64,000 nt of DNA from Escherichia coli. Lineage in GTDB: Bacteria; Pseudomonadota; Gammaproteobacteria; Enterobacterales; Enterobacteriaceae. Of the stretch, positions 29,329-29,650 are shown piece after piece. Position numbers and translations under genes: made by a program. The stretch lies in the NCBI RefSeq assembly GCF_044324785.1, contig NZ_CP172127.1. One strand, 5' to 3'. Positions within the stretch are counted from its first letter, which is position 1. Every line of letters begins with the position of its first letter. The notes under the pieces are model-generated. The model was given only the letters and a program-made list of their open reading frames with translations. It did not search any database and was not told the origin of the DNA.

Positions 29329-29650
29329 CTGGCGTTCACCGCGTTATCCACGTTGTACTTACCAAATGCCGATTTCTCAAACTCCAGACCAAAGCGGAGA
29401 TTATCGCGAATTTCTGCATTCAGACCAACATTCATGAGCATACGTCCGTCTTTCTCGCCTTTGATGCGTTTTTCACCAGAGGCATCGCGCGGAACGGTTT
29501 CACTGTTTGCCAGAATGTCAAACTGGTAACCGAGGCCGGCACGGGCAGTGACTTTCCAGTCCTTACCAGAGAAGGTTTTACCGACATCGATACCGGTACG
29601 GCCAATCAGCGGGTTGAAGTCCTTTCTGGTGTGAGAACCTTAAGGAAATC
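29329..29650 (-). pseudogene. C-terminal beta-barrel fragment of an autotransporter-type outer membrane protein
   Basis: minus-strand translation ends ...LRFGLEFEKSAFGKYNVDNAVNASFRYSF-stop (aromatic-X-aromatic terminus); no start codon or N-terminal part. Confidence 0.4.

Follow-up and report, generated by a model that had tools for sequence, protein, structure and literature searches.

How does the carboxy-terminal end of an autotransporter come to stand alone on a mobile island of Escherichia coli? The question arises at positions 29310–29624, minus strand, of a 64,000-nucleotide stretch of contig NZ_CP172127.1 (assembly GCF_044324785.1; referred to as the window), where a reading of the sequence alone had noticed an isolated β-barrel terminus and had interpreted it as a truncation scar. 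Our analysis leads, with a probability of roughly 0.85, to the reading that this remnant is the non-functional 3' end of a serine protease autotransporter (SPATE) gene, which would have been interrupted upstream by an IS21-family insertion sequence (IS) and subsequently truncated by a microhomology-guided deletion, and which would be carried as cargo of an integrative and conjugative element (ICE) at tRNA-Phe.

The remnant comprises 104 codons and a stop (TGA at 29312–29310). Its translation reads ...KDFNPLIGRTGIDVGKTF...NVDNAVNASFRYSF up to the stop, with the aromatic carboxy-terminus of a β-signal (...NASFRYSF), confirming the barrel end described in the sequence-only reading. Including the preceding in-frame stop codon, a TAA at 29641–29639 located 5' of the remnant, the minus-strand frame reads ...FP, stop, GSHTRKDFNPLIGRTGIDVGKTFSGKDWKVTARAGLGYQFDILANSETVPRDASGEKRIKGEKDGRMLMNVGLNAEIRDNLRFGLEFEKSAFGKYNVDNAVNASFRYSF, stop. 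The earliest ATG, GTG or TTG past this TAA is an internal ATG at 29441, which leaves an open reading frame (ORF) of 43 residues only, so that the homologous stretch is devoid of a usable start codon. Neither a start codon nor a signal peptide nor a passenger could be detected for the remnant in the 29310–29624 frame or in the upstream DNA. Between the remnant and the end of traF (29790) there are just 99 bp of intergenic sequence and 67 bp of an IS end, the DNA upstream thus consisting of the IS21-family end followed by traF. The earlier view of a truncation scar holds, as the carboxy-terminal part of the barrel alone is kept of an autotransporter gene, whereas the extent originally given, 29329–29650, is only partly correct: the homologous DNA covers 29310–29624, positions 29625–29650 belong to the IS21-family end, and the last five codons with the stop (29310–29328) had been left outside. 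The same coordinates are already annotated in RefSeq, where the PGAP pseudogene CQP61_RS05575 (29310–29624, minus strand) is labelled 'autotransporter outer membrane beta-barrel domain-containing protein; incomplete; missing N-terminus', an N-terminally truncated pseudogene reflecting ordinary gene decay. This annotation was taken from NZ_CP033635.1, and coordinates may be off by 1–2 bases within 26788–29330.

Profile searches placed the translation among the β-domains of type Va secretion, with a similarity well above what chance would produce. The Pfam Autotransporter beta-domain (PF03797) matched the 109 residues after the TAA at profile positions 166–254 of 255 (E=4.6e-6; 27.0 bits at a curated cut-off of 26 bits), and TIGR01414 matched the 104 remnant residues at positions 333–432 of 432 (54.4 bits; cut-off 16 bits). 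In a search of the PDB, residues 174–277 of the EspP β-domain (2qom_A) aligned end to end with the 104 residues at about 90% protein identity (E=1.1e-59), followed by the Hbp barrel as a weaker match (E=3.3e-38). Likewise, the DNA of the remnant is 86–98% identical to the 3' ends of genes annotated as sigA (91.5%), pet, 'S6 family peptidase' or generic autotransporters. The sequence-only reading had suggested an alignment to translocator domains of the Ag43/AIDA type, which share the secretion class (type Va) and the general barrel architecture with the SPATEs. This comparison yielded no significant sequence similarity: BLASTP against Ag43 of K-12 gave a best E value of 53, and neither AIDA-I nor any other non-SPATE barrel was among the PDB hits up to E=10, which consisted of EspP and Hbp only. 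These sequence comparisons identify the remnant as the tail of a SPATE, a member of the S6 peptidase family, and not of an Ag43/AIDA-type autotransporter.

The barrel of SPATEs consists of 12 strands, as known from the EspP structure. An 83-residue chain named EspPbeta9-12 (7ri4) aligned to residues 22–104 of the remnant, which accordingly holds β-strands 9–12 and about 21 residues before them. Instead of a complete barrel of about 250–280 residues, only these 104 residues, equivalent to the last third of the Pfam profile, are present. Of the parts found in SPATEs in general (EspP, SigA, Pet), the ESPR signal peptide, Peptidase_S6 domain, β-solenoid, autochaperone and barrel strands 1–7/8 are missing from the remnant, and neither a Peptidase_S6 domain with the catalytic serine motif nor an ESPR signal peptide was detected within the window. 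With 7.7% of the SPATE coding sequence left, the remnant is a pseudogene fragment and not a member protein.

An intact counterpart of the lost gene was found in E. coli FDAARGOS_1300, whose locus (termed L004) displays the same gene order as the window: a hypothetical gene, traF, the autotransporter, an IS3 fragment, a methyltransferase, a type III restriction endonuclease and DUF1281. The intact gene (L004 2239–6315; 4077 bp) encodes an unnamed S6-family protein of 1358 residues (WP_114042103.1) that comprises ESPR (E=2.4e-5), Peptidase_S6 (E=3.3e-60, with GDSGS visible in the alignment), a β-solenoid, an AC_1 autochaperone and the Autotransporter beta-domain at residues 1100–1336. Its tail differs from the 104 residues of the remnant at one position, the DNA identity amounting to 98.2% including 67 bp of 3' flank, and its context is that of the window, with traF upstream and a type III restriction-modification system downstream. 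To SigA the protein is 43% identical overall, with a nearly identical barrel. The upstream neighbour traF (29790–30992, minus strand; TraF_2 family, Pfam PF13729, E=5.6e-68) served as the synteny anchor, as it precedes the SPATE gene in the intact relatives; this adjacency is also present at the sigA locus of strain S19-651 (L005) and, judged from the traF flank, in O104:H4 strains and strain 55989. A named SPATE could not be assigned as the parent, for which NCBIfam gives the generic barrel domain only and whose clusters bear generic names, 'S6 family peptidase' or 'autotransporter ... domain-containing protein'.

We mapped the breakpoints by blastn of the window against L004, resulting in four collinear blocks: window 31679–29692 corresponds to L004 1–1977 (84% identity), 29624–29243 to 6001–6382 (98.2%), 26787–25697 to 6552–7660 (92.8%) and 24723–22001 to 8556–11278 (93.4%). 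Between the first two blocks, 4023 bp of L004 (1978–6000) are replaced by 67 bp in the window (29691–29625). The replaced segment comprises codons 1–1254 as well as the 261 bp that precede the start codon (L004 2239), and since L004 6001 is the first base of codon 1255, the window retains codons 1255–1358 together with the stop. On the traF side, the intergenic DNA at 29692–29789 (minus strand) is collinear with the SPATE-intact relatives, and the homology of the traF flank ends exactly at window 29692 (query position 159) in every listed genome without the scar. Position 29692 therefore looks like the site of a simple IS insertion, which on L004 would precede the SPATE start codon by 261 bp. 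On the opposite side, 67 bp of the 3' flank of the SPATE module are retained (29243–29309, minus strand), including a terminator-like hairpin at 29301–29279 detected by a terminator scan. Homology to L004 and L005 runs to 29243; the 169 bp that follow the SPATE module in these two loci have no counterpart in the window, where the higBA module is found instead.

The 67 bp at 29625–29691 (minus strand) represent the left end of an IS21-family element with the terminal inverted repeat TGTCAGCGCCAGTG..., the left junction reading GGATAATACA/TGTCAGCGCCAGTG (IS terminus after the slash). They start with TGTCAGCGCCAGTGATATAAGACGGTAAT, and positions 29691–29663 are identical in 29 of 29 bases to the annotated IS21-family left terminus in E. 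coli SMS-3-5 (locus L003, 3936–3964). The TGTCAG terminus adjoins unrelated DNA in L003 as well as in two other loci, L006 and L007, indicating a genuine element end, and the terminal inverted repeat likewise stands at a junction with unrelated DNA in the window. The 67 bp finish with TTTCCTTAAGGTTCTCACACCAGA..., matching the leader of the L003 element; together with the bases that follow, 40 of 43 positions agree with L003 4001–4043 (93%), a segment reaching into istA, which starts at 4037. In the window, IS-derived sequence ends at 29625–29619, about 13 bases short of the istA start in this proxy element, from which the window further differs by a 22-bp indel, a 14-bp stretch standing in for 36 bp of the proxy. 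In comparison to IS21-family elements carrying istA and istB, the window keeps the family-type terminus and leader, of which 67 bp remain, whereas istA, istB and the right inverted repeat are absent from the remnant.

The first 49 bp of this IS21-type left end (29643–29691; TGTCAGCGCC...GATTTCCT) recur with 98–100% identity in the listed E. coli, Shigella and Klebsiella plasmids, and 2,323 plasmid records match some part of a 73-bp query. About 500 E. coli records, for the most part without annotation, contain the 49-bp end at 95–99% identity. In the unrelated loci L006 and L007 the similarity breaks off at the same base, after TTTCCTG.

The right-hand boundary of the IS end coincides with the breakpoint in the SPATE gene. 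The window reads ...CACACCAGAAAGGACTTCAACCCGCTGATTGG... across this deletion junction, the IS proxy ...CACACCAGAAAGGACATCAACATGCTGAGC... and the intact SPATE gene ...CATGAAGGATAAGGACTTCAACCCGCTGATTGG...; the crossover falls inside the hexamer AAGGAC (29619–29624, minus strand), a microhomology common to the IS21-family 5' leader and SPATE codons 1255–1256. In the extended alignment, the IS proxy and the SPATE gene agree at 16 of 19 bases, and over the whole SPATE region the proxy IS has just one other 16/19 match. When 200,000 IS/SPATE junctions were placed at random in these two sequences, a junctional identity of at least 6 bp occurred at a frequency of 0.0017. A join made by a transposase, that is an IS-mediated adjacent deletion, would keep an intact IS end at the junction. 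The junction bears the signature of a microhomology-guided illegitimate deletion.

From these breakpoints we propose the following history. An IS21-family element, its istA facing the SPATE gene, would first have inserted upstream of this gene, at a distance of 261 bp from the start codon. A single microhomology-guided illegitimate deletion of roughly 6 kb would then have extended from inside the IS into the barrel, removing not only the IS from about base 68 on but also the promoter and the regions for the signal peptide, protease passenger, autochaperone and barrel strands 1–7/8. Subsequently, the scarred island may have spread or been inherited, mainly in poultry-associated E. coli, with an IS3-family insertion between higB and higA as a later event in one branch.

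Several points weigh against this proposal. The expected intermediate, in which an intact SPATE gene would be preceded by an intact IS21-family element, was not found in 5,426 complete E. coli genomes, nor was an intact IS with the exact 67-bp left end found in these genomes or in 72,556 PLSDB plasmids, which yielded only gapped matches of about 71% to annotated IS21-like elements, next to many solo 49-bp ends. The IS at the junction was read from a related element (93% over 43 bp), and the true microhomology may differ from 6 bp. Moreover, the end state does not by itself prove in which sequence the events took place or whether there was one deletion or more. A different route, in which the IS had inserted inside the SPATE gene or elsewhere and the junctions arose by at least two events, would draw on the missing intermediate and on the many truncated solo IS21-family ends in E. 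coli and its plasmids, which indicate that such ends are often rearranged. It could have combined an IS-mediated adjacent deletion with a separate internal deletion, or could have involved recombination with another IS21 copy. We nevertheless consider this route unlikely. The left IS terminus adjoins DNA that is collinear to the base with the uninterrupted locus, as after a simple insertion; the right junction lies in the SPATE gene and not in the IS, on a rare microhomology that a transposase-mediated deletion would not need; and one deletion is more parsimonious than two.

The distribution of the scar provides a further view on its origin. It is present in eight of the 5,426 complete genomes, and at the traF-proximal site an IS end is borne only by these eight. 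The 601 bases around the remnant are identical in six of them, mostly from poultry, and 99.5% identical in two human STEC genomes (from E. coli that produce Shiga toxin). An artefact of assembly or sequencing, with a chimeric join confined to one genome, has a practically negligible probability, as the junctions agree base for base in eight complete genomes that were sequenced independently and come from several hosts and countries.

The sequence-only reading had further attributed the scar to the same rearrangements that produced the neighbouring IS and higBA remnants. Indeed, all eight scar genomes carry the higBA pseudogenes downstream, and the 3' junction at 29243/29242 occurs only together with the scar among the records listed. 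A common origin nonetheless appears very improbable from the arrangement of the breakpoints. Both the IS3 and the higBA remnants are located 3' of the SPATE gene, beyond 29243 and thus past the intact stop codon and the terminator, whereas the truncation is on the 5' side and was made with an IS21-family end. The higB/higA pair itself (27859–29180), which had been regarded as a product of rearrangement, is instead inactivated by frameshifts and an internal stop. Furthermore, the truncated IS3-family element between higB and higA (about 28205–28853) is absent from two STEC genomes, 2015C-3121 and STEC2018-553, in which the SPATE scar is identical and higB and higA show the same frameshifts, indicating that the IS3 insertion was separate and later, in the poultry-associated branch. 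An adjacent ORF of 337 residues (26859–27872, plus strand), annotated as hypothetical and without a Pfam match, overlaps the start of higB with its 3' end and is conserved in IS3-bearing as well as IS3-free versions of the island.

Does the remnant retain any function? With four or five strands left a 12-strand barrel cannot close, and from its sequence the remnant was judged to be non-functional, unable to form a barrel and presumably decaying neutrally. Four substitutions separate it from the intact gene, three of them synonymous and one replacing a Leu that is conserved in the L004 protein, SigA and EspP by Pro; this exchange fits a relaxed constraint, although four substitutions are too few for a test. 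A promoter scan of the minus strand between traF and the remnant revealed no promoter-like site. The residual ORF of 43 residues (MLMNVGLNAE...FRYSF; 29310–29441, minus strand), which starts at the internal ATG and appears in the ORF list, was judged non-coding. It could in principle be a small functional gene for a peptide with an outer-membrane β-signal, given that the ORF is present, ends in the aromatic motif ...FRYSF and is 99.5–100% conserved among the eight carriers, a degree of conservation that recent common descent predicts as well. We regard this possibility as scarcely credible: the ORF has no signal peptide, so that its product would stay in the cytoplasm, where to our knowledge a β-signal has no target; the promoter scan upstream of it was negative, PGAP does not call it, and the conserved Leu is lost within the tail.

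SPATE barrel DNA is 86–98% conserved even among genes with passengers of only about 43% identity, and the tail could therefore serve as a landing pad for recombination. The 315-bp tail with its terminator would in that case allow the re-acquisition or exchange of a SPATE gene by homology, an idea that, like that of a regulatory β-signal peptide made from the 43-residue ORF, we mention as a speculation of very low likelihood. On the opposite strand, an ORF of 165 residues (29214–29711, plus strand) overlaps the remnant and the IS end; it is unannotated, has no Pfam match and is probably a by-product of the other strand.

Similar scars arise elsewhere. In the enterohaemorrhagic E. coli strain 472, a remnant beside ureG (L002 6003–6242; 'autotransporter ... 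missing N-terminus') likewise consists of a 3' barrel end adjoining a transposase remnant, with 88% DNA identity to window 29551–29293. Its breakpoint lies at the equivalent of window 29551 rather than at 29624, and it involves another mobile element on another island; it represents an independent truncation event. The scar described here illustrates in textbook manner how a cargo gene decays on a mobile island, to which our analysis adds modestly: a history at base resolution, the assignment of the lost gene to the SPATEs as a toxin-type protease, and the distinction of the IS3 insertion as separate and later. In practical terms, virulence screens with probes for nothing but the conserved 3' end of SPATE genes could count such an island as SPATE-positive even though no protease can be made from it.

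The corresponding region of NZ_CP033635.1 is a conjugative island integrated at tRNA-Phe beside yqgA, whose features include ICE genes (TIGR037xx), TraI, an integrase and a type IVb pilus that has a PilV shufflon. A literature search for SPATE genes on pheV ICEs revealed nothing specific to this scar. In the window, positions 1–49392 are largely occupied by an ICE at tRNA-Phe (49317–49392) next to yqgA, which carries conjugation genes (TIGR037xx), an operon for a type IVb pilus with PilV shufflon and, close by, a site-specific integrase, as well as ArdA, the type III restriction-modification system and a paralogue of the type B L31 ribosomal protein (11483–11746). Over 22001–31679 the identity to FDAARGOS_1300 is mosaic, with 84% on the traF side, 98% in the SPATE tail and about 93% on the restriction-modification side, and the comparison suggests that the SPATE module may have moved between diverged island backbones. 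Within the segment 26788–29330, the window is 100% identical to TUM1886, APEC E19035 and GF60, and 99.8% identical, with a 2-base length difference, to NZ_CP033635.1.
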